From Candidatus Dojkabacteria bacterium (GTDB lineage Bacteria; Patescibacteriota; Dojkabacteria; B142; JAFGMG01): a stretch of DNA of 64,000 nt. Each line of letters starts with the position of its first letter. The first letter of the stretch is position 1. Below are positions 4,031 through 52,726 of this stretch, piece by piece. The notes under the pieces were generated by a model. The model was not told the DNA's origin. It searched no databases and saw nothing but the letters and a program-made list of their open reading frames with translations. The position numbers were made by a program, and so were the translations under genes. The DNA is taken from NCBI GenBank assembly GCA_016927655.1, contig JAFGMG010000008.1, forward strand, positions 5,929 to 69,928, written 5' to 3'.

Positions 4031-5202
4031 CGCACACCGATCTCAATTTCGATTTCAATACTATCATTGTCTCTCAAGACATTCAGAACAACTTTTTCGC
4101 CTATTTCCGAAGATTGAATATAGCTACTGAGATTCTTCTCCCCTAAATCTGCCCCTGCATAGCCAATTATGAAATCTCCCACTCTCAATCCAGCCGATTC
4201 AGCAGGACTTCCAGATTCTATTCTGGTCAATTGTGCTGCACTCAAAGCTTGATTGTCCATAAAAACCACCCGAGTTTGATACTCCACACCCAAATATGGC
4301 ATTCTAAATTCCCCATATTCTTCTAACTCGGCTAACCTGCTTTTTATCCGATTTATCGGGAGCGCAAATGATAAATTATCTGCTCCACTGACTGTTGCGA
4401 AATTGATACCTATTACCTGTCCTTTGAGATTTAATAATGGGCCACCTGAATTACCTGGATTAATCGCAGCATCAGTCTGAATTACATCATCAAAAGTTTC
4501 GAGAGCCGAATTGAAGAAACTCCCGCTTGTAATATCCACACTTCTGCCGAGACCACTGATAACCCCAGTCGTCACACTCCCGGAGAGTTCTCCAAGTGGA
4601 TTGCCGATAGCTATCACTTGCTGCCCTACCTTTAATTCATCGCTATCACCTAAAGTCAAAGGAACCAGATTATTACTCTGTTCAACTTCAATAATAGCAA
4701 TGTCATTGACTTGATCGCGATAAATCTGCTTAACCTCAACTACCTCTTCAATCCCATCAACTTGAACAAAATATTTTGCATTGAGTTCGGAAACAACGTG
4801 CTGATTGGTTGCGATCATCCCATTGCCGATCACAAAACCTGTGCCCAAAATGCCTCCGGAACTATAGGTATCCCCTTCGATCCCGATTCCGACAACACTT
4901 GGACTTGCAATCTCAACAATCGAAGTAACCCTTTCTTCTGGAGTTCCCTTTTCAAGAAGGTCTTGTAATCTTTCATAGTTTTCTATGCTTGTACTATCCC
5001 CCTCATCTTGAACTTCACACCCTATCCTATTCCAGGCGCTGGAATCCTCTATAACTGCCGTACAAGCCCATTTCTTTGTATACCCGGCGTAAGTCAGGAC
5101 CCCAACTGCAGATGCAACCGAAATAATAGTAAATACAGATATAAGAAAACAGCCTAAATATACCCTTGCTTTTAAGCGTTTTCCTCTTGGTTTATTTTCC
5201 AT
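4027..5202 (-). CDS. HtrA/DegP-family trypsin-like serine protease with C-terminal PDZ domain, N-terminal TM anchor
   Basis: GNSGGPLLN catalytic serine motif, His (ATNQHVV), and PDZ (GLRVGDFIIGYAG). Confidence 0.8.
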   Translation of the reverse strand: MENKPRGKRLKARVYLGCFLISVFTIISVASAVGVLTYAGYTKKWACTAVIEDSSAWNRIGCEVQDEGDSTSIENYERLQDLLEKGTPEERVTSIVEIASPSVVGIGIEGDTYSSGGILGTGFVIGNGMIATNQHVVSELNAKYFVQVDGIEEVVEVKQIYRDQVNDIAIIEVEQSNNLVPLTLGDSDELKVGQQVIAIGNPLGELSGSVTTGVISGLGRSVDITSGSFFNSALETFDDVIQTDAAINPGNSGGPLLNLKGQVIGINFATVSGADNLSFALPINRIKSRLAELEEYGEFRMPYLGVEYQTRVVFMDNQALSAAQLTRIESGSPAESAGLRVGDFIIGYAGADLGEKNLSSYIQSSEIGEKVVLNVLRDNDSIEIEIEIGVR

Positions 5203-5229: not shown

Positions 5230-6453
5230 TTATCTGGAAATATTTTCTAAGGCTTTGTCCAATTGAGGATCTCTTCGATTTATGAAATCTTCCTCGCTAA
5301 GCTCTACCTCAACATCAGGCTTGATAGGATTCTCTGAACTTAGCACTCTCCCGCCTGGAAGTACCCACTCCTGGAAAACAACATGCAAAGATCCGCCATT
5401 TTTCAAGGAGATGACCTTCTGTTCAACTCCTTTCCCTACTGTTGGCATGCCAATTATTTCACCCCTGTTATTATCTTGGATCGCTCCAGCAAAAATTTCT
5501 GATGCTGATGCACTTCCCTCATTTACCAGTACTATTATTTGCACCTCCTCAAATCTACCATTTCTCTTTGCCTTTGATTGAGTTTCATTCCCATCGCGAT
5601 CTCTCTCCGACATTAAAAGAGTATTTCTTGGAAAGAATTCATCTAAAACATACAAAACTCCATCGACATATCCACCGGGATTATTTCTTAAATCAACTAT
5701 GATTGTATCAGGATTTTCTGCGTATACTGCCGAAGCTGTTTCGTCCCATTGATTTTTAAACTCAGACAGACTGTCTTCTGTAAATTGAGAAATTTTAATC
5801 TTATAGACCCCATTTTCCAAATCCTCATAGGTGATACTTTTAACATCGATTTTTTCTCTAGTTATTTCAAATACTAAAGGATCCTGCTGCCCTATTCGTA
5901 CTACTTTCAAATTCACGACTGTACCGGCTTCACCTTTTATCAATTCGGCCGTTTCATATGCTTCTTTCCCTTTAGTGTCAACCCCGTCAACTTCGATAAT
6001 TTTATCCCCCGGCCTCAACCCTGCCTTCTGAGCAGGATAACCATCGATCGGAGTTTCAATTTCGGTGTATTCTCCCGTATAACGCAATGTAGTCCCGATA
6101 CCTTCAAATTCTCCTGCATTAGATTCAAGATAATCAGCAGTTTCTTGACTATTTAAGTAACTGTTGTATGGATTCCCAAGGGAATTAACTAATCCCTTTA
6201 TTGCCCCATCAAGCATTAACTCTCCATCCAGCTCTTCCACTAAATAGCTATTCTCCAATTCTGTCCAAACCTCCCAGAGCGTATCAACGTTTACCCCATT
6301 GGCATTGCCATTTAGATCCCCTGTGAGAACATAACCCGGAGCTTTTGCATTCTCTGCATTGATTTTACCTACGAAAAACCCGGTTAAAAAAACTGCCCCA
6401 ACGACGAAAATAAATACAAAACCTGTCGTTGCCCTGCGGATGTTATTCTCCAT
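5230..6453 (-). CDS. ctpA: carboxy-terminal processing protease (S41 family), PDZ-containing, N-terminal TM
   Basis: PDZ (GLRPGDKIIEVDG) and S41 catalytic region (IVLVNEGSASASEIFAGAIQD). Confidence 0.85.
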   Translation of the reverse strand: MENNIRRATTGFVFIFVVGAVFLTGFFVGKINAENAKAPGYVLTGDLNGNANGVNVDTLWEVWTELENSYLVEELDGELMLDGAIKGLVNSLGNPYNSYLNSQETADYLESNAGEFEGIGTTLRYTGEYTEIETPIDGYPAQKAGLRPGDKIIEVDGVDTKGKEAYETAELIKGEAGTVVNLKVVRIGQQDPLVFEITREKIDVKSITYEDLENGVYKIKISQFTEDSLSEFKNQWDETASAVYAENPDTIIVDLRNNPGGYVDGVLYVLDEFFPRNTLLMSERDRDGNETQSKAKRNGRFEEVQIIVLVNEGSASASEIFAGAIQDNNRGEIIGMPTVGKGVEQKVISLKNGGSLHVVFQEWVLPGGRVLSSENPIKPDVEVELSEEDFINRRDPQLDKALENISR

Positions 6454-6458
6454 GGATT

Positions 6459-8195
6459 TTATATAAGATTTATAGTTTTGATCTCATCCAGTTTTGCATC
6501 TGTTTTGATACCAACTAGATCATTTTTTAACGAAACTATTGTAGCACAAGTTCCCCAATTCTTCGGATGAATAATCCTGACATTCTGCCCCACCCTCAAT
6601 TTATTTTGTTTCTTAATTACCTGCACTTCTCCATTTCCTCTACCTGCTATTAATACATCGTTTCGTTGCGGACTCACAACTACAAAGCTGTCTTTTAAGA
6701 CCTGCTTAATTGGGTTGGCCAATCCCGTCAAATCTATTCCGCCTAGAATGACAATAGTTATCAGACTTCCCAAATCAAAGTCCACAATATCATTGAATAA
6801 CCCCAAATCTATCGAGTCTGCAACAATAAGTTTCTTGCCATTTCGTATAAACGTTTCAAAATCAGTTTTATACAAATTTGATACAATAACGCCATCTTTA
6901 TCAAAAGATCCTTCGAAATTTTCTCCAAAGATTATCTTTGGTCTTAGCTTTAGATAATTTTTGAACTTCTTTGTTTTTTGTTGTCCCATCTGACGAACAA
7001 GAATATAACCTTTTTTCAGGTCGCTCAAATCAATCAAACCTTCAATTGAGCTGCTGAAATGGTTCCCTAATTTCTGATTCTTCCTTACAGTTTCTCCCTC
7101 TATCACTCCAATTTCTAATTTTTCGAATGAATCCGGATTTGAATAGTCAAATACTCGAATTTTTGATACGTTTGAATGATCCACTTTCACCTTCAGTTCT
7201 TCATTATAGTATTCAAAAACGTTGTCTTTTCTTTTTTTCAATAACTTGTTCATAGAAGAGAAATTCTTAATTTTTCCTTTATTACCAAATAAAACTCCTT
7301 TGTATTTCCTCCCTCCATAGCTTTCATTATTCTGAAAATCCGAATACACCCAATGATCAGGATCAGGATGCAGCACTCTGTTTGATTCAAATTCATTATT
7401 TGAATTTATCTTCAATGTCCTGCCTATCTCAATTTTGCTAACCAAAATCAAATTTTTATTAAAATTTTCTTTATTTAAATATTTCAGTTCGTTTTCCTCG
7501 GGCAGCTCGGAAAGCACACCTTCCCAGAGTCCATTTTCATCAAGCAGTAGATCAAATTCTCCAGTCGTCTTATCTTGAAAACTCTTTTTCAATAAAATTT
7601 CGATAAAAGAGTTCATTTTATCTGCCCATACAAATTCTCCCATCATCACTATCATCCCCGAAACTTCAATTTTCTCTAATAATTTTTCAAATGCTTTAAT
7701 TACAGGCTCTTCAATCTGGGATCTATTTTCAAGATCAACATATGGATCAAAAAGGAAATTATTTAGTAAAGAGGGGTCAAGAGTTGTCAAATCCACCTTC
7801 TCCGACTTAACTTCGAGTGTATTATTCTTCGCGAAATAATTGAAAAAAGAAACCTCCTTGAAGCCAATTTTAAATCCCTGGATCTTGTCTGTTGAATAAA
7901 TGCGAGAAAGCACCTCAAAGCTTTGGCGTTCTAAGGTTTTCTCTCTTTTGATATATGACCAGCTGGGATTTTGCCTATAATTAATATTTTTCGCAAAAAA
8001 AATAACCTCATTGTCGCAAGTATCAGCAATATGTGTCTGAAGATCATCTTGATTAAATCTGGAAATCCGCTCTATAGATGCATTTTTCTGAATAAGACCC
8101 TTTGCCCCCCATTCAAAAGTCAACGTATTTAGGAAAAAATCCCCTTTCGCAAAGAAAGTGATGTTTTTTTGACTCGTAGGCAGTTTAATTTTCAC
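6459..8195 (-). CDS. hypothetical protein, 578 aa, no recognisable domain
   Basis: Long uninterrupted ORF with balanced composition; no TM segments and no recognisable motif. Confidence 0.35.
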   Translation of the reverse strand: MKIKLPTSQKNITFFAKGDFFLNTLTFEWGAKGLIQKNASIERISRFNQDDLQTHIADTCDNEVIFFAKNINYRQNPSWSYIKREKTLERQSFEVLSRIYSTDKIQGFKIGFKEVSFFNYFAKNNTLEVKSEKVDLTTLDPSLLNNFLFDPYVDLENRSQIEEPVIKAFEKLLEKIEVSGMIVMMGEFVWADKMNSFIEILLKKSFQDKTTGEFDLLLDENGLWEGVLSELPEENELKYLNKENFNKNLILVSKIEIGRTLKINSNNEFESNRVLHPDPDHWVYSDFQNNESYGGRKYKGVLFGNKGKIKNFSSMNKLLKKRKDNVFEYYNEELKVKVDHSNVSKIRVFDYSNPDSFEKLEIGVIEGETVRKNQKLGNHFSSSIEGLIDLSDLKKGYILVRQMGQQKTKKFKNYLKLRPKIIFGENFEGSFDKDGVIVSNLYKTDFETFIRNGKKLIVADSIDLGLFNDIVDFDLGSLITIVILGGIDLTGLANPIKQVLKDSFVVVSPQRNDVLIAGRGNGEVQVIKKQNKLRVGQNVRIIHPKNWGTCATIVSLKNDLVGIKTDAKLDEIKTINLI

Positions 8196-45142: not shown

Positions 45143-46003
45143 TCAATATTCTACTGCTATTCTGCCCTTGACATCAGTTCTATGAACTTCGATGCCAAAT
45201 TGCTTGAGATTATCCAGAGTCTCTTGGTGCGGATGCCCAAATTTATTATCTTTTCCAACCGAAACATACGCCTTTTCAGGATGGGTTAATTCGAGAAATT
45301 CTGTTGAAGTACTCGTTTTGCTGCCATGATGACCAACCTTGATTGCGTCCAGGTCATAAGTACTACCGGCAAAAATCTGCTCCTCATATTTACTCGGCAG
45401 ATCACCTCCGAAATACATTGCAAAGTCTTTGTAAACCAATACAAATGCAGCCGAAGCGTCATTGACATCCCACATGCAGCGTTTATCTTCTTCCCTAATT
45501 TCAACATCGCACTCTTCATAAATATCAAACGTCGGCCAAAGCATATCAAAATATGTGCAGCAACCCAGAGAAAAATCCTTTTGAGAATCCAGCTTCCAGT
45601 TCCCAATTTCGCCTTCCTTCACATCCTGCTGGAATTGGCGGAATGCCTCATTGCCATCTTCAAATGGGAGGAATGAGACAGCGTCTACATCGTAATAATC
45701 AAATACGAAGGGCATTCCGCCCACATGATCCTGATCAGGATGAGTTAAAATAACCAGATCCAGTGTCCGGTCCCAGAAAGGGATCACATCTTGAAGTTCC
45801 TGAATGACACTATCATCCGGCCCTGCATCAACTAAAATATATTTATTGTCCGCGGTCTTGATCAAAATCGCATCTCCCTGGCCAATATCTAGAATAAATA
45901 TTTCTAGGTTTCCCGAAGGCGAGCTGAAGATCAGATAACTAATCACAGCAATCAATGCCGTCAAAATGCCGCAAATTTTAATTAGCAATTTCTCGTTTCT
46001 CAT
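45143..46003 (-). CDS. comEC: ComEC C-terminal MBL-fold (DNA-uptake nuclease-like) domain as a separate ORF with its own TM anchor
   Basis: ILDIGQGDAILIK...VILTHPDQDHVGG metallo-beta-lactamase motifs of the ComEC C-terminal domain. Overlaps the upstream ORF by 26 nt in another frame. Confidence 0.7.
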   Translation of the reverse strand: MRNEKLLIKICGILTALIAVISYLIFSSPSGNLEIFILDIGQGDAILIKTADNKYILVDAGPDDSVIQELQDVIPFWDRTLDLVILTHPDQDHVGGMPFVFDYYDVDAVSFLPFEDGNEAFRQFQQDVKEGEIGNWKLDSQKDFSLGCCTYFDMLWPTFDIYEECDVEIREEDKRCMWDVNDASAAFVLVYKDFAMYFGGDLPSKYEEQIFAGSTYDLDAIKVGHHGSKTSTSTEFLELTHPEKAYVSVGKDNKFGHPHQETLDNLKQFGIEVHRTDVKGRIAVEY

Positions 46004-47456
46004 TTATTTTCCTGTAGCTGATTTCTATCATACACAGCAATATAGTTAAATAAATTATCAAAACAAGCCAACCAGTCAGACCGACAATTTTTACACTTGC
46101 GAACGGCAGTCCTCCGAAAAAATTAATCACTCTAATGATATAGTCCATTATCAAAATAAGCGGGAAAGCAGCAATTTTGGCCGTAGGGAGCGAAATCAGC
46201 GAAACTGTTACTACGATTGCAGAATAGAAGGTCAAAATTGTGACAACAGGCAAAACCAGCAAATTCACAAAAAGTGCCACAATTGAAAAAGTTTCAAAAT
46301 TAAGCATACTTACCGGAGTTGTCAACAAAATCGCTGATAATGTTGCGGGAAGCTCGCCAAGAAATTTTTTATATTTCTCGACCACCGAACTTCGTTCTAT
46401 ACTCTTTGAGAGGCCGACTATCCCAACTGTCGCAGCGAACGACAACTGGAAACTGACCGTGAAAACTGAAAGCGGATTCATAATTGACAGAACCAGAACG
46501 GCAATAGCCAAAAGAGAAAGAATTGAGGTCTTCCGCCCGATTGTTTTCGAAAAAAGTACAGTGTATCCCATAATTCCGGCACGCATCGCTGGGAGATTAT
46601 CAAACCCTACTAAAACTAAAAAGCAAAACAGTAGGAATGCTGTGAGCCATATCACATACTTACGGTGAATAACTCCAGCAAGCTTCAACAGCAACAAGAC
46701 TATCACCGAGACATTAAATCCCGAAACAGCGATGATATGAGTCGTCCCGGTATTCGAAAGATTCTTTGAAAAATCCTCAGGCATACTTGCTCTCTCGCCC
46801 CATACAAGTCCCGCAGCCAGCGATGCGTGCGGTTCCGGGAGAATTTTTCTGACACGCACACTCAAATCCTCCCGAAATAATGCAATTCTCTCAAAAAAGC
46901 TTTTTTTATGCCCCACCACCCAATACCCCTGCACCTTCACTTGGTAGAAAATCCCCTGAGTTTTCAGATACTCCTTGTAGTCAAAATCTTCCACCATCTC
47001 AGGCTCTTTCAGGAAAAATTCTCCCTCGATCACATCACCGTAATGAATCTTGGAAGTCTTTGGAAATGATGCAATCGCCAGCCCCTCAAAATTTTCTCCT
47101 TTTACCCGGCATTTTTTGTTGTAGCTGCCTTTCTCCGGCACCGAAACAACATGCATCTGCCCAACCGCGACCCCATAACTCTCTGCTACACGCTGCATTT
47201 TCGTTTCCCCGGCGAACGAATCAAACCGCCAAAAGCCAAGCAGGCTAAATGTCACCATTACAATTACCGGCAACAGCAGCCGTAGATTTCTTGCAGATAT
47301 CAATGCAAACCAGAGTAAATTGAACCCCAAAATGCCAATAACTATAGGGCCGACACCAAAGTAACCCAACACTATACCAAGCACAAATCCCAAACTCGCT
47401 TGCAAAAAAGGCAGATTTATCAGATAAATTGCGACAAAACCTAGCCGTTTTCGCAT
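45978..47456 (-). CDS. comEC: ComEC/Rec2 competence channel, membrane (Competence + DUF4131-like) portion
   Basis: Polytopic membrane protein directly downstream of comEA, with a soluble OB-like insert between TM blocks. Confidence 0.7.
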   Translation of the reverse strand: MRKRLGFVAIYLINLPFLQASLGFVLGIVLGYFGVGPIVIGILGFNLLWFALISARNLRLLLPVIVMVTFSLLGFWRFDSFAGETKMQRVAESYGVAVGQMHVVSVPEKGSYNKKCRVKGENFEGLAIASFPKTSKIHYGDVIEGEFFLKEPEMVEDFDYKEYLKTQGIFYQVKVQGYWVVGHKKSFFERIALFREDLSVRVRKILPEPHASLAAGLVWGERASMPEDFSKNLSNTGTTHIIAVSGFNVSVIVLLLLKLAGVIHRKYVIWLTAFLLFCFLVLVGFDNLPAMRAGIMGYTVLFSKTIGRKTSILSLLAIAVLVLSIMNPLSVFTVSFQLSFAATVGIVGLSKSIERSSVVEKYKKFLGELPATLSAILLTTPVSMLNFETFSIVALFVNLLVLPVVTILTFYSAIVVTVSLISLPTAKIAAFPLILIMDYIIRVINFFGGLPFASVKIVGLTGWLVLIIYLTILLCMIEISYRKINEKREIAN

Positions 47457-47459
47457 TTT

Positions 47460-48101
47460 CTAAATTGTAATTTCGTTTTTTATCTTCTCAAAAGTGCTCT
47501 CGCCGATACCACTCACATCCATTATTTCCTCAATCGCCCCAAACGGCCTTGCATCAATTATTTTCTGCGCCGTCGATGGCCCTATGCCTGATAACCCATC
47601 CAACTGCTCTAATGTTGCAGTATTGAGATTGACCAATCCCGTTTGAGATCCAGCAGCCGAAGTCCCTTCAGTATCCTGTCCTTCCTCGATCGATGGAATA
47701 TAGATTTTCTCTCTGTCCTCGACGAGTTTTGCCAGATTCATCTGCTTCTGGATATAGTACATATCAGCTTTTTCGGTGAATCCTCCTGCAAGCTCAATTA
47801 CCTCAAGCAGACTCACACCCTCATCTACTTCAATCACCCCAGGATTTGCAACCTGCCCCTCGATATCCACCACAAGTTTTTTCTCTTCTAACCCAGCTTG
47901 ATTTATCCCTTTTATCTGTTCAATTTCCTCCCCAGTCAACAATCTAATATCTTCTTCCCCTTTTTGATTTTTTTGAAAAAACAGCACCCCGCAAATCACC
48001 GCGCAAATGGATAAAATCAGGGCAATTGGAATTTTAAACCGTTCGAGCAGGTTTTGAATATCGATATTTTCCATGCAAAGGCTAGATAATAAACACCCCA
48101 A
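47460..48101 (-). CDS. comEA: competence protein ComEA (SLBB + tandem HhH DNA-binding)
   Basis: N-terminal TM, C-terminal LNTATLEQLDGLSGIGPSTAQKII...GIGESTFEKIK. Confidence 0.8.
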   Translation of the reverse strand: MGCLLSSLCMENIDIQNLLERFKIPIALILSICAVICGVLFFQKNQKGEEDIRLLTGEEIEQIKGINQAGLEEKKLVVDIEGQVANPGVIEVDEGVSLLEVIELAGGFTEKADMYYIQKQMNLAKLVEDREKIYIPSIEEGQDTEGTSAAGSQTGLVNLNTATLEQLDGLSGIGPSTAQKIIDARPFGAIEEIMDVSGIGESTFEKIKNEITI

Positions 48102-49882: not shown

Positions 49883-52726
49883 TTACTCCCCGACAACATA
49901 ATTAATCAGACGGTCTTTGACATATATTACACGTATTATAGCCTTTCCAGCAAGATATTTCCCGATTTTTTCAGATTTTTTTGCTTCTATTTCAACCTCA
50001 GACTGCTCACTTTCTGCCGGCATTTCTAGATTATCTCGCAATTTCCCGTTAACTTGAACGGCAATAGTGACCATTTTGTCTTTTGCCATGTTTTCATCAT
50101 ATACAGGCCACTTTTCTAAATGAATCGAAGTTTCATTTCCAAGTTCTTGCCACAGTTCTTCAGTAATAAATGGTGCAAATGGCGCAAGAACTAAAAGGAA
50201 CTTTTCCCATACTTTTTGGTCCAGCTGTTCAACATTTTGCGCATAATTCACAAACTCCATCATCTTGGCGATCGCGGTATTAAATGAAAGCGTCTCAAGG
50301 TCTTGACCAACTTTCTTGATCAATTTATTGATTTCTACCTGTTGGGTAGTTTCAGGTTTTTCCTCCCCGACCTTATCCTTTAGACCCCAGACTTTGCCCA
50401 AAAACCTTTTAATTCCCAGAACTCCTTTCGTCGACCATGGCTTATCATCAGAAAGTGGCCCCATGAACATCTCGTACATCCTCAATGTGTCTGCACCGTG
50501 GCTCTCTACAACGTCAGTTGGATTGATGACATTACCCCATCTTTTACTCATTTTGCGGCCATCTTCACCAAGTATCAATCCCTGATGTCTATGAACTTTA
50601 AAAGGCTCATCGAAATCAATATATCCTGCGTCATACAACACTTTTGTGAAAAATCTGGAGTACAGCAAATGCCCGTTTACATGTTCCGGTCCGCCAAGGT
50701 AAAAATCAACCGGCATCCACTTTTTCAAAGCTTCTGGGGATGCGAATTGCTTGTCATTTTTCGGATCCAAATAGCGGTAGTAGTACCAGCTCGAGCACAT
50801 GAAAGTGTCCAGGGTATCGACTTCTCTTCTCCAGCCCTTTCCGTATTTTTCTTCGACCCCTTCTTGAAAAGATTTGGAATATGTCAAAGGTGATTGTCCG
50901 GTAGGTTTGAAATCTACGTCATCAGGCAATACAACAGGGAGATCTTTTTCGTCCACAGGATGTAAATTCCCTTCTGGGTCATAAACCATCGGAATCGGCG
51001 CACCCCAGAATCTCTGCCTGCTCACTGACCAGTCGCGTAGCTTATAGGTCACTTTTGCCTCTCCAATACCTTTCTCCTCCAGCCATTTCACGACTGCCTC
51101 TTTTGCCTCTTCCGATTTCAATCCATCAAACTGGCCCGAATTGACGACTCTTCCATATCCTGAAAAAGTTTCCGCTCCATACAGATATCTCCTAAGACCA
51201 ATAATATTTTCTTCATGTGAGCATTTTTTCAAAAATTCTTCCGGACTCATCCAAACAGCATCCTGAATATCTTTTTCATCCTCATTTACATCAATAGGCT
51301 CATCTTCCAATAATTCCAATAGAACCGGCTGATTCAACCTATGCCTATATACGTTTTTATGATCTGCAAAAAAGTGCGATTCTATTTCACCTCCAAGAGT
51401 TTTGACTGCTTTGCATTTATATCCAGTTTCTTCCAAGACTTCTCTTTCAGCAGCGGCAAGTAAATCCTCCTCATCATCAATTCCACCTATAACTGGTGAA
51501 ACCCAGTTATTCTTCTTCCAATTGACGGCCAATACCTTCCCGTCCGATTCCCTTTGCACGACAGCAGATATTGTTTTTCGGAATTCTTCATCTTTCCTTT
51601 CTTTTCCGAATATTGGTATTACAACTTCTTTGATTTCCAGCTTGTATTTTTTTGCAAAATCCATATCTCTCTGGTCATGGGCGGGAACTGCCATTATTGC
51701 CCCAGTACCATAATCAGTCAGGACATAATCGGCAATCCAAATTGGAATATTTTTCTCTGTGGCTGGGTTGATTGCATATGCTCCGGTAAATACCCCTGAC
51801 TTACTTTTTGTCATATCAGTTCTCTCAATTTCTGTCTTTTTCTTCGCATCCTCGACATATTTTTCGACTTCTCCCTTTTGCTCTTCAGTTGTAATTTGCT
51901 TTACCAATTCATGTTCCGGCGCAAGGACCATATATGTAGCTCCAAAAATAGTATCAGGTCTGGTCGTAAACACCTTTAAGGTCTTATCTGAATCAACGAT
52001 TTCGAACCTTATCTGTGCCCCTTCACTTCTCCCAATCCAATCCCTCTGCCTTTTAACTGTCTCTTTTGGCCAGTCGACCTTGTCCAGATCTTTTGCCAAT
52101 CGATCTGCGTATTCTGTGATTTTCAAATACCACTGCTCCATCATTTTATGTTCAACTGGAGTATCGCACCTCTCGCACACCTCCTGCCCATCTTTGTCTA
52201 CCACCTGCTCGTTTGCAAGAACTGTCTTGCAGCTTGGACACCAGTTTACTTTCTGATTTTTTCTATATGCCAAGCCTTGATTGTACATAAGCAGGAAGAA
52301 CCACTGCGTCCATTTGTAGTAGTCGGGATTGTGGGATCCAACTTCACGGTCCCAATCATATGAAGCTCCAATCTTAACTAGTTGACTTTTGTAATTTTCA
52401 ATAGCCTTATCAGTATTTATCCTTGGGTGAATATTTGTCTTTACTGCATAGTTTTCTGCCGGTAAACCAAAGGCATCCCATCCCATAACCTGGAGAACTT
52501 TCTCACCTTTCATTCTTTTAAATCTTGCCAAGATATCACACCCAACATATATTTCCGTATGCCCAACGTGCAGACCAGATCCCGATGGATAAGGAAGCTG
52601 CGGCAGGATGTAATATTTGTTTTCATGCGTGGCATCTTCAGGAGTTTTGTAAATTCCTGTCTCTGCCCATTTTTTGATCCATTTTGGCTCGATTGCCTTT
52701 GGATCGTATTGTGCTTTGCTGTCCAT
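49883..52726 (-). CDS. leuS: leucyl-tRNA synthetase carrying an inserted Nudix-hydrolase-like domain
   Basis: HIGH motif (HVGH), editing-domain TTRPDT, AHDQRD, KMSKR. The insertion between AHDQRD...KYKLEIK and SGQFDGL carries the perfect Nudix box G x5 E x7 REVLEETGY. Confidence 0.9.
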   Translation of the reverse strand: MDSKAQYDPKAIEPKWIKKWAETGIYKTPEDATHENKYYILPQLPYPSGSGLHVGHTEIYVGCDILARFKRMKGEKVLQVMGWDAFGLPAENYAVKTNIHPRINTDKAIENYKSQLVKIGASYDWDREVGSHNPDYYKWTQWFFLLMYNQGLAYRKNQKVNWCPSCKTVLANEQVVDKDGQEVCERCDTPVEHKMMEQWYLKITEYADRLAKDLDKVDWPKETVKRQRDWIGRSEGAQIRFEIVDSDKTLKVFTTRPDTIFGATYMVLAPEHELVKQITTEEQKGEVEKYVEDAKKKTEIERTDMTKSKSGVFTGAYAINPATEKNIPIWIADYVLTDYGTGAIMAVPAHDQRDMDFAKKYKLEIKEVVIPIFGKERKDEEFRKTISAVVQRESDGKVLAVNWKKNNWVSPVIGGIDDEEDLLAAAEREVLEETGYKCKAVKTLGGEIESHFFADHKNVYRHRLNQPVLLELLEDEPIDVNEDEKDIQDAVWMSPEEFLKKCSHEENIIGLRRYLYGAETFSGYGRVVNSGQFDGLKSEEAKEAVVKWLEEKGIGEAKVTYKLRDWSVSRQRFWGAPIPMVYDPEGNLHPVDEKDLPVVLPDDVDFKPTGQSPLTYSKSFQEGVEEKYGKGWRREVDTLDTFMCSSWYYYRYLDPKNDKQFASPEALKKWMPVDFYLGGPEHVNGHLLYSRFFTKVLYDAGYIDFDEPFKVHRHQGLILGEDGRKMSKRWGNVINPTDVVESHGADTLRMYEMFMGPLSDDKPWSTKGVLGIKRFLGKVWGLKDKVGEEKPETTQQVEINKLIKKVGQDLETLSFNTAIAKMMEFVNYAQNVEQLDQKVWEKFLLVLAPFAPFITEELWQELGNETSIHLEKWPVYDENMAKDKMVTIAVQVNGKLRDNLEMPAESEQSEVEIEAKKSEKIGKYLAGKAIIRVIYVKDRLINYVVGE

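Follow-up and report, generated by a model that had tools for sequence, protein, structure and literature searches.

Leucyl-tRNA synthetases, Nudix hydrolases and added enzyme domains

Few enzymes are as conserved and as well studied as the aminoacyl-tRNA synthetases. Extra catalytic domains, well known in those of eukaryotes, are rare in those of prokaryotes. Among prokaryotic class Ia synthetases, an added enzyme domain has a precedent in the NCBIfam model NF040702 ('ileS_w_GNAT'), which describes an isoleucyl-tRNA synthetase (IleRS) carrying an N-acetyltransferase. The present analysis deals with a leucyl-tRNA synthetase (LeuRS) that bears a Nudix hydrolase domain nested in its CP1 editing domain, and that is encoded in a stretch of 64,000 nucleotides (positions 5,929 to 69,928 of contig JAFGMG010000008.1, hereafter the window) from a Candidatus Dojkabacteria bacterium. 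The Dojkabacteria, or candidate division WS6, are ultra-small bacteria of the candidate phyla radiation (CPR). Both the synthetase and the added domain differ from those of NF040702, against which the window LeuRS scores 87 bits for a cut-off of 1999, and the NCBIfam scans returned no model for a LeuRS bearing a Nudix domain. In the public records, such proteins are annotated as 'leucine--tRNA ligase' or 'class I tRNA ligase family protein', and some as 'alpha/beta fold hydrolase'. The literature searched, in which the coverage of subscription journals is thin, contains no description of a LeuRS with a Nudix or another nested enzyme. Both components, LeuRS and Nudix, are well known; what appears to be undescribed is the nesting of one in the other, together with how often and how widely it recurs.

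The canonical LeuRS, represented by the Thermus thermophilus enzyme (1H3N and 2BYT) and by the Escherichia coli 4AQ7 family, comprise in this order the HIGH signature, a Zn-binding CxxC...CxxC motif, the CP1 domain, the KMSKS signature, the anticodon-binding domain, and the C-terminal domains. The window LeuRS exhibits the same domain order and the same motifs, and its comparison with 1h3n returns 739 bits. It differs from the canonical enzymes in that a 154-residue Nudix segment takes the place of a 17-residue CP1 loop (T. thermophilus residues 363-379).

The minimal Nudix enzymes, such as 3I7U, 1VC8, the Mycobacterium smegmatis MutT1, and 2AZW, are separate proteins of 130-160 residues. The window domain has their fold and their complete Nudix box but is nested in another enzyme, and its family possesses conserved residues of its own, R383, K457, R461, E484, and W492 in the numbering of the window LeuRS. 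A link between synthetases and Nudix hydrolases is documented elsewhere: diadenosine tetraphosphate (Ap4A), a synthetase side product, is degraded by a Nudix hydrolase in the LysRS/NUDT2 axis and, in bacteria, by the Ap4A hydrolases. The LysRS/Ap4A/NUDT2 case is the functional analogy behind the hypothesis, weighed below, that the nested domain may act on dinucleoside polyphosphates (ApnA); there, the two partners are separate proteins and the synthetase is the class II lysyl-tRNA synthetase (LysRS).

A complete Nudix domain nested in the editing domain of LeuRS

The LeuRS gene of the window (positions 49883-52726, on the minus strand, as are all of its parts given below) is an uninterrupted open reading frame (ORF) coding for 947 residues. 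Its product is 100% identical to the NCBI entry MBN1331773.1, 'leucine--tRNA ligase [Candidatus Dojkabacteria bacterium]', and is of the bacterial type according to TIGR00396 (leuS_bact, 986.5 bits for a cut-off of 548.4), which matches it in two stretches located on either side of the insert. Pfam analysis reports tRNA-synt_1, the LeuRS editing domain PF13603 (235 bits), Anticodon_1, and NUDIX. Alignment with 1h3n pairs window residues 6-369 with T. thermophilus residues 3-362, and window residues 524-720 with T. thermophilus residues 380-579. Between these two blocks, ~154 residues of the window protein face 17 residues of T. thermophilus, and they start 15 residues past the editing-site Asp (T. 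thermophilus D347, the second D of the AHDQRD motif). This inserted segment, whose position is called site A and which is delimited by the 1h3n alignment (residues 370-523; positions 51158-51619), is made up of the Nudix hydrolase domain (residues 383-501; positions 51224-51580), identified by PF00293, AlphaFold2, and Foldseek, and of two short linkers. The Nudix box GGIDDEEDLLAAAEREVLEETGY (residues 414-436; positions 51419-51487), located with a regular expression, is a full match to GX5EX7REUXEEXGU. With a loosened pattern applied to the six-frame translation of the 64 kb, this LeuRS site is the sole Nudix-box match, and it also matches the strict pattern.

Analysis with PF00293 (gathering threshold 21.1) returns 51.4 bits in the whole protein (E 1.4e-13, residues 383-501) and 56.8 bits on the excised insert alone. 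The PF13603 editing-domain profile is interrupted by the insert and reported in two matched stretches, the match to residues 228-377 covering profile positions 1-148 out of 185 in total and the other stretch lying past the insert; in the relative P0181, the editing-domain profile picks up again after the Nudix domain (profile positions 124-185). The GC content of the insert (0.36-0.41) falls inside the gene's own range and near the window mean of 0.395. A preliminary description, made from the sequence letters, had already placed a Nudix-like domain with a textbook box in the CP1/editing region, at positions 51120-51620, and had proposed to search the insert against the NUDIX profile, to align the protein with other LeuRS, and to survey the LeuRS of other CPR bacteria. 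The PF00293 hit, the split PF13603 match, the 1h3n alignment, and the complete Nudix box all bear out this assignment, and its coordinates fit those of the insert. Its estimate of a gap of about 150 residues, where bacterial LeuRS have about 35, was approximately right, as the distance from KYKL to SGQFDG amounts to 166 residues here and to 29 in T. thermophilus.

AlphaFold2 predicts for the insert alone a canonical Nudix alpha/beta/alpha sandwich with a pLDDT of 83. For the whole LeuRS, the prediction yields a pLDDT of 89 and a pTM of 0.78, the Nudix region being at ~90. In this model, two short beta strands (residues 369-373 and 525-527) bracket the Nudix domain, which fits with its being borne on the tip of a beta hairpin within CP1. 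Foldseek reports hits with many solved Nudix enzymes (probability 1.0, 15-26% identity, target-normalised TM-scores of 0.79-0.82). The best ones are 2azw, an uncharacterised MutT/Nudix protein from Enterococcus faecalis, the M. smegmatis MutT1, and the Aquifex Ap4A hydrolase 3i7u, together with the Thermus Ap6A hydrolase Ndx1 (1vc8, rmsd 2.2 A) and the Mycobacterium tuberculosis ApnA hydrolase 9cxx. Diphosphoinositol polyphosphate phosphohydrolases (DIPPs), ADP-ribose pyrophosphatases, RppH, and decapping enzymes are also found among the matches. As judged from its sequence and predicted fold, the insert is a true domain of the Nudix superfamily, complete and with a perfect box.

The possibility that the LeuRS of other lineages regularly contain this segment was considered and is ruled out. 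The Thermus LeuRS, aligned residue by residue, has a loop of 17 residues at the position of the insert. No counterpart of the insert exists in the chains of the E. coli group, of Neisseria (6q89 group), of Agrobacterium (5ah5), or of Mycoplasma, whose best aligned stretch ends at window residues 369-376, immediately ahead of the insert. The alignment that the preliminary description had called for therefore sets the Nudix domain apart from the regular LeuRS architecture. Close CPR relatives without Nudix have 10-44 residues at site A. An intein or mobile element was also considered, by eye: the junctions ...KEVV/IPIFG... and ...GYG/RVVNSG are devoid of the intein-type Cys/Ser/Thr and His-Asn residues, and the insert comprises an ordinary Nudix fold without any endonuclease, which disfavours this interpretation as well.

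Distribution in CPR bacteria and DPANN archaea

A word-indexed search with the insert alone returned 7 proteins, and the true extent of the family became apparent only through an exhaustive profile search and through scans of genomes and metagenomes. Six of these 7 proteins are free-standing Nudix proteins of 143-174 residues with 50-60% identity, and the seventh is a fragment starting with the LeuRS motif AHDERDFEFAKKY. The profile search of 1.84 billion cluster representatives (clusters at 50% identity) yields 1767 matches with E<=1e-3, 214 with E<=1e-10, and 18 with E<=1e-30. When the segments of the window LeuRS are mapped onto the best 150 representatives, ~110 of them prove to be LeuRS, or LeuRS fragments, with an internal Nudix domain, and no host protein of another type was identified among these 150. 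Likewise, the Nudix domain is embedded in LeuRS in 41 out of the 49 best loci of a scan of the GTDB species-representative genomes and in most of the best loci of the metagenome scan, and PF00293 is present in 49 of the 120 LeuRS most closely related to that of the window. The embedded cases of the GTDB scan belong, in bacteria, to Saccharibacteria, Paceibacteria, Berkelbacteria, Nomurabacteria, Buchananbacteria, Moranbacteria, and other Patescibacteria, and, in the DPANN archaea, to Woesearchaeota and Pacearchaeota. The survey of CPR relatives suggested in the preliminary description thus shows the insert to be recurrent there and to extend to archaea. An assembly chimera, which that description had named as a possible refutation, is ruled out, because the embedded architecture recurs in over 100 independent clusters, in many assemblies, studies, and phyla.

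The position of the domain within LeuRS was determined for 220 family domains. Site A, between CP1 and the next strand, accommodates 156 of them, while minor sites are located at residues ~215/217 (12 domains), 243/249 (3-4), 582/590 (1), and 615/633 (1) of the window LeuRS; the 46 domains without LeuRS parts are free-standing proteins or fragments. Some LeuRS contain two Nudix domains, and P0133 contains three, confirmed by Pfam, with P0128 and P0138 looking alike. The copies at the minor sites share 50-63% identity with the site-A copies of other proteins and 21-50% with the site-A copy of their own protein, and they are therefore old paralogues from one pool and not recent tandem duplications. 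Altogether, sequence comparison delineates one Nudix family found overwhelmingly inside LeuRS in CPR bacteria and DPANN archaea, two groups of tiny symbionts, with one to three copies per protein and at least five loops occupied. This goes well beyond what the preliminary description had foreseen, with hundreds of sequences, several sites, multiple copies, trans-encoded forms, and other nested enzymes. A second hydrolase, apparently active to judge from its conserved residues, hence occurs inside the proofreading domain of LeuRS in hundreds of sequences from two domains of life. On the practical side, such nested insertions can distort the LeuRS alignments used for phylogeny.

One of the metagenomic LeuRS with an embedded Nudix (L010:42-2105, JGI 3300045340 Ga0490011_015785) displays in-frame TGA codons at conserved Gly positions, as in YTQK*NLVNS*AFTGL compared with GRVVNSGQFDGL, and CGA codons at the conserved Trp of RDW and RYWG. 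This codon usage suggests a recoding of the Absconditabacteria type, with UGA read as Gly and possibly CGA as Trp.

Conservation of the domain and its coupling to LeuRS

Conservation was analysed on 205 aligned family domains, 168 of which are embedded, with ~30-60% overall identity. The glutamates of the REx2EE motif (E429, E432, and E433) are conserved at 99-100%, G414 at 99%, R428 at 89%, W492 at 98%, and E484 at 78%, and conserved basic residues are found at R383 (93%), K457 (91%), and R461 (82%). Of the 149 representatives, 113 have one or more strict Nudix boxes, and many of the 36 others are fragments. The near-total conservation of the glutamates at such an overall identity points to purifying selection, as expected of an active pyrophosphohydrolase, and we infer that the embedded domain is catalytically active. 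The conserved basic residues suggest that its substrate is rich in phosphates. The family domains are acidic, with a median pI of 5.5 and a net charge of -6 (pI 4.8 for the window insert), and an RNA substrate is therefore mildly disfavoured.

In a neighbour-joining tree of 120 LeuRS (775 core columns, without support values), Nudix-bearing and Nudix-free enzymes are interleaved, as exemplified by the pairs P0023/P0036, P0030/P0038, P0048/P0076, and P0062/P0097. No position of the LeuRS core separates the Nudix-bearing from the Nudix-free enzymes, as might be expected of a docking surface or of modified active sites, the maximum mutual information being 0.24 bit, at variable surface positions. 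The Nudix domain would thus be a self-sufficient accessory module, flexibly tethered to LeuRS and not integrated in the aminoacylation or editing machinery.

Free-standing, adjoining and remnant forms

Besides the embedded domains, the family comprises free-standing proteins. In DPANN archaea, the free-standing Nudix genes P0001, P0002, and P0005 (loci L001, L005, and L091) encode 160-170 residues. They are orthologues of the window insert, with 50-60% identity over the full insert including the linkers and an identical REVLEETGY core of the box; as compared with the window, however, they form a separate gene, 9-34 nucleotides downstream of that of LeuRS and on the same strand. The distance is 24 nucleotides in L001 and 9 in L091, in both cases after a bacterial-type LeuRS, and 34 in L005, where the upstream gene encodes an archaeal-type LeuRS (TIGR00395, 895 bits) in an otherwise syntenic neighbourhood. 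In L001, L091, and L005, it looks from this arrangement like the synthetase was replaced in situ and the Nudix kept as the next gene. The gene order LeuRS-Nudix-...-ScpB-RNase HII is shared by these loci (L001:2978-6483, L091:2343-5483, and L005:1714-5137). Other free-standing orthologues are located away from any LeuRS (L007 and L009).

The LeuRS of these loci present peculiarities of their own. The L001 enzyme (999 residues) carries a 149-residue insert exactly at site A (4070-4520, residues ~365-515), for which no Pfam match is returned at E<=0.1, and the bacterial-type LeuRS of L091 is devoid of an insert. In the DPANN loci L091 (3915-4988) and L095 (2546-3619), a bacterial-type LeuRS core is followed by a C-terminal region that shares 44% identity with its counterpart in the archaeal-type enzyme of L005, an arrangement reminiscent of the hybrid LeuRS that PMC4005665 reports from haloarchaea.

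An intermediate situation is encountered in L043, in which a plain LeuRS of 813 residues is followed, 94 nucleotides downstream, by a gene of 281 residues (5716-6561). The latter retains a CP1 fragment with AHIQLH in place of AHDxRD, the editing Asp being lost, an intact Nudix box, and a recognisable post-insert GIMINS segment; as read from these motifs, it is a decayed remnant of a Nudix-bearing LeuRS. This remnant suggests that a Nudix present as the next gene may arise when LeuRS is replaced and its Nudix part retained. As the box of the remnant is intact, the Nudix would be worth retaining by itself. The remnant is followed in this locus by another Nudix-like ORF, which is atypical (6622-7170), and by RNase HII.

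Two further arrangements were observed. In the saccharibacterial locus L049, a Nudix gene of 214 residues (809-1453) ends 3 nucleotides before the start of a LeuRS that itself has an intact embedded Nudix. In the upstream copy the box, GGVEEGQTAETAAREEIQQETGY, is degenerate, with Q substituted for E and the Arg displaced, and this copy may be inactive. P0271 (L171:1559-2740, on a contig of 2.8 kb) is a protein of 393 residues that associates a serine hydrolase with a Nudix of the family and has no recognisable LeuRS parts, although the gene called on this contig does not yield that protein when translated with the standard code; it could be a free-standing pairing of two modules otherwise nested in LeuRS, or another remnant.

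Other enzymes nested in LeuRS

The same loops of the LeuRS of relatives harbour other domains, as reported by Pfam. A serine or alpha/beta hydrolase (PF06821/PF12697) is nested in P0144, and likewise in many LeuRS relatives of 980-1200 residues. In addition, P0130 carries a HAD_2 phosphatase, P0158 a Ham1-type ITPase (197 bits) directly ahead of the anticodon-binding domain, and P0071 an S-adenosylmethionine (SAM) methyltransferase at site A. On the LeuRS tree, the alpha/beta-hydrolase module shows the same patchiness as the Nudix. Since several unrelated small enzymes are nested in these relatives, the LeuRS of CPR and DPANN lineages is a general acceptor of enzyme modules, and several of those modules are classic nucleotide 'house-cleaning' enzymes.

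A bolder and rather improbable extension is that the CPR/DPANN LeuRS acts as a hub, collecting small enzymes into the loops round its editing and catalytic domains to form a clean-up platform anchored on the synthetase. If we assume such a platform, it might consist of one to three Nudix domains, the serine (alpha/beta) hydrolase, the HAD phosphatase, the Ham1-type ITPase, and the methyltransferase, a composition that is as speculative as the hub itself. Its targets, equally conjectural, might be by-products of aminoacylation and damaged nucleotides, namely ApnA, pyrophosphate or nucleoside monophosphates, mis-activated adenylates or mischarged esters, and non-canonical nucleoside triphosphates (NTPs). 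Were this true, it would amount to a new way of organising quality control in minimal cells, and the Nudix would be the commonest module of the platform.

Possible function of the nested Nudix domain

We tentatively favour, while giving it slightly less than an even chance, the explanation that the nested domain is an active Nudix enzyme, tethered to LeuRS, that hydrolyses a small nucleoside polyphosphate, with ApnA as the leading candidate linked to LeuRS. Such an enzyme would rely on Mg2+ and on Nudix chemistry to cleave a small nucleoside polyphosphate rich in phosphate, with R383, K457, R461, E484, and W492 predicted to surround the Nudix box. The tether would hold it near the synthetase, and LeuRS would keep charging and proofreading tRNA-Leu as normal. 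The leading candidate substrates would be Ap4A and Ap3A, which synthetases make from the aminoacyl-adenylate and ATP or ADP, and non-canonical NTPs would be the alternative ones. Clearance of an Ap4A-type by-product is weakly suggested, as a live candidate, by the presence of ApnA hydrolases among the nearest folds and by the exclusive association with LeuRS, in analogy with the LysRS case. If the Nudix does act on a product of the synthetase, it would constitute a new, physically coupled form of by-product control in organisms with minimal genomes.

Several observations weigh against this explanation. The curated Nudix subfamily models all score far below their cut-offs, and no characterised subfamily fits: the RppH models NF001938, NF001937, and NF001934 return 25.9, 23.5, and 20.9 bits for cut-offs of 116, 139, and 241, respectively, NudB (dihydroneopterin triphosphate diphosphatase, NF006961) 24.9 bits for 103, the MutT1 8-oxo-(d)GTP phosphatase NF052459 14.9 bits for 475, NudE 20.7 for 169, and YffH 17.1 for 79.55. 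A sequence search of the PDB yields at best 31.6 bits, with uncharacterised or oomycete Nudix proteins, and 23.9 bits with 3i7u. The identity to solved Nudix structures is merely 15-26%, and the ApnA hydrolases 3i7u, 1vc8, and 9cxx, although among the best fold matches, share only 17-25% identity with the window domain; their high rank may reflect the fact that they have the smallest Nudix folds. LeuRS has been reported to be a poor producer of Ap4A next to LysRS or the phenylalanyl-tRNA synthetase (PheRS). Finally, the frequent loss of the domain, the absence of covarying LeuRS residues, and the presence of unrelated nested enzymes fit equally well with a model in which the Nudix is a mere passenger of LeuRS.

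In this model, which we consider unlikely but the most serious of the alternatives, the domain would be a generic housekeeping Nudix, for instance a MutT-like sanitiser of the nucleotide pool, for which LeuRS is merely a permissive, essential, and well-expressed scaffold, and the modules would pass from one lineage to another as the conserved sequences on either side of them undergo homologous recombination. The interleaving of presence and absence among close LeuRS relatives and the lack of any LeuRS residue that covaries with the insert are in line with it, as is the occurrence in the same loops of the serine hydrolase, HAD_2, Ham1 ITPase, SAM methyltransferase, and 149-residue domains, several of which are of the 'house-cleaning' kind. 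The orthologues located away from LeuRS (L007 and L009) and the L043 locus, which keeps the Nudix while the LeuRS part decays, point in the same direction. However, a generic passenger would hardly be hosted almost exclusively by LeuRS, with no other type of host in the best 150 representatives, nor would it be expected to enter at least five LeuRS loops, in up to three copies per protein that are old paralogues, or to stay beside LeuRS even when the type of LeuRS differs. Moreover, recombination through the flanks accounts for the spread at one site and not for the repeated capture at several. If the domain is nevertheless a passenger, an essential universal gene would serve as a vehicle to carry and exchange accessory enzymes, which bears on gene economy in CPR and DPANN organisms.

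The other explanations assign the domain a role on tRNA, a role in editing, or no activity. A Nudix acting on the ends of tRNA-Leu, either removing a 5'-triphosphate or cap in the manner of RppH or NudC or repairing a pyrophosphorylated or blocked 3' end, would agree with the fact that the common insertion sites all flank or fall within CP1, which binds the CCA end, and with RppH and decapping enzymes being among the fold matches. The best NCBIfam matches are indeed RppH models, but below threshold, with 25.9 bits at most for a cut-off of 116. The acidity of the domains is unusual for RNA-binding Nudix enzymes, the free-standing forms and the remnant persist although no partner that binds tRNA is attached to them, and the frequent loss in close relatives speaks against a required step of tRNA maturation, so that we regard this role as improbable. 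The main idea of the preliminary description, that the domain hydrolyses aminoacyl-adenylates as an added site of pre-transfer editing, is still less probable and retains only a very slight chance. It is attractive in that the Nudix sits in the editing domain, 15 residues past the editing-site Asp, and belongs to a fold family of hydrolases of adenine-nucleotide type. Nudix chemistry, however, attacks a metal-held diphosphate (P-O-P) linkage, whereas an aminoacyl-adenylate has a single phosphate engaged in an acyl-phosphate anhydride and is dealt with by enzymes of the HIT family, or else at the sites of the synthetase and of CP1, which makes the reaction unlikely on chemical grounds. In addition, the CP1 motifs of post-transfer editing are fully retained, and there is therefore no editing deficit to compensate; the editing and synthetic motifs of LeuRS are unchanged, with no residue covarying with the insert, and the domain is dispensable in close relatives and also occurs unlinked from LeuRS. 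A non-catalytic Nudix fold, serving as nucleotide sensor, regulatory module, or structural spacer, appears just as unlikely as adenylate hydrolysis: degenerate boxes do occur in some copies of multi-Nudix proteins and in the upstream gene of L049, and 36 of the 149 representatives lack a strict box, many of them being fragments, but the window box is perfect and the 99-100% conservation of the glutamates over 205 domains is hard to explain without catalysis. As to an artefact, be it an assembly chimera, an in-frame mis-join, or a pseudogene, it can be practically dismissed, considering that the ORF is uninterrupted and of uniform composition, that the same architecture and junctions recur in more than 100 independent clusters, and that an identical protein has been deposited (MBN1331773.1).

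Anatomy of the host synthetase and neighbouring genes

Apart from the insert, the window LeuRS is, by its sequence, a canonical bacterial-type enzyme with intact synthetic and editing motifs. The HIGH signature of the synthetic site (HVGH, residues 53-56; positions 52559-52570) has its H53, G55, and H56 invariant in 45 relatives. The part of the CP1 editing domain that precedes the insert (residues 228-369; positions 51620-52045), defined by the PF13603 match and by the alignment with T. thermophilus up to residue 362, contains the Thr-rich motif TTRPDT (residues 254-259; positions 51950-51967) and the editing-site motif AHDQRD (residues 349-354; positions 51665-51682), whose D354 aligns with T. 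thermophilus D347. The remainder of CP1 (residues ~524-560, starting with GRVVNSGQFDGL; positions 51047-51157) aligns with T. thermophilus residues 380 onward and leads back toward the catalytic core. It is followed by the KMSKS signature (KMSKR, residues 725-729; positions 50540-50554), identified from the sequence and the 1h3n alignment, and by the anticodon-binding domain (PF08264, 86.5 bits, residues 798-910; positions 49997-50335). The HIGH, KMSKS, TTRPDT, and AHDQRD motifs are invariant or nearly so across the 45 relatives, whether the insert is present or absent, and the host LeuRS looks fully functional.

As compared with the T. thermophilus enzyme, the window LeuRS is devoid of the leucine-specific domain, which in T. 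thermophilus covers about residues 580-636, ahead of KMSKS: window residues 720 and 725 align with T. thermophilus residues 579 and 637 (window positions ~50540-50570). In this respect it resembles the LeuRS of Mycoplasma mobile, in which, according to PMC3643597, a tetrapeptide stands in place of this domain. Since some natural LeuRS thus lack the leucine-specific domain, its absence leaves the assignment of the window enzyme to the bacterial type unchanged.

The gene neighbourhood in the window gives no hint on function; it includes genes for a cyclophilin, EamA transporters, ComEA and ComEC, an aldo-keto reductase, and unknown proteins. The ComEC DNA-uptake channel shows up as two overlapping ORFs on the minus strand, one for the Competence domain (45978-47456) and one for the metallo-beta-lactamase domain (45143-46003), which reflects either a genuine split or a frameshift. 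Directly upstream of this two-ORF ComEC lies ComEA (47460-48101, minus strand).

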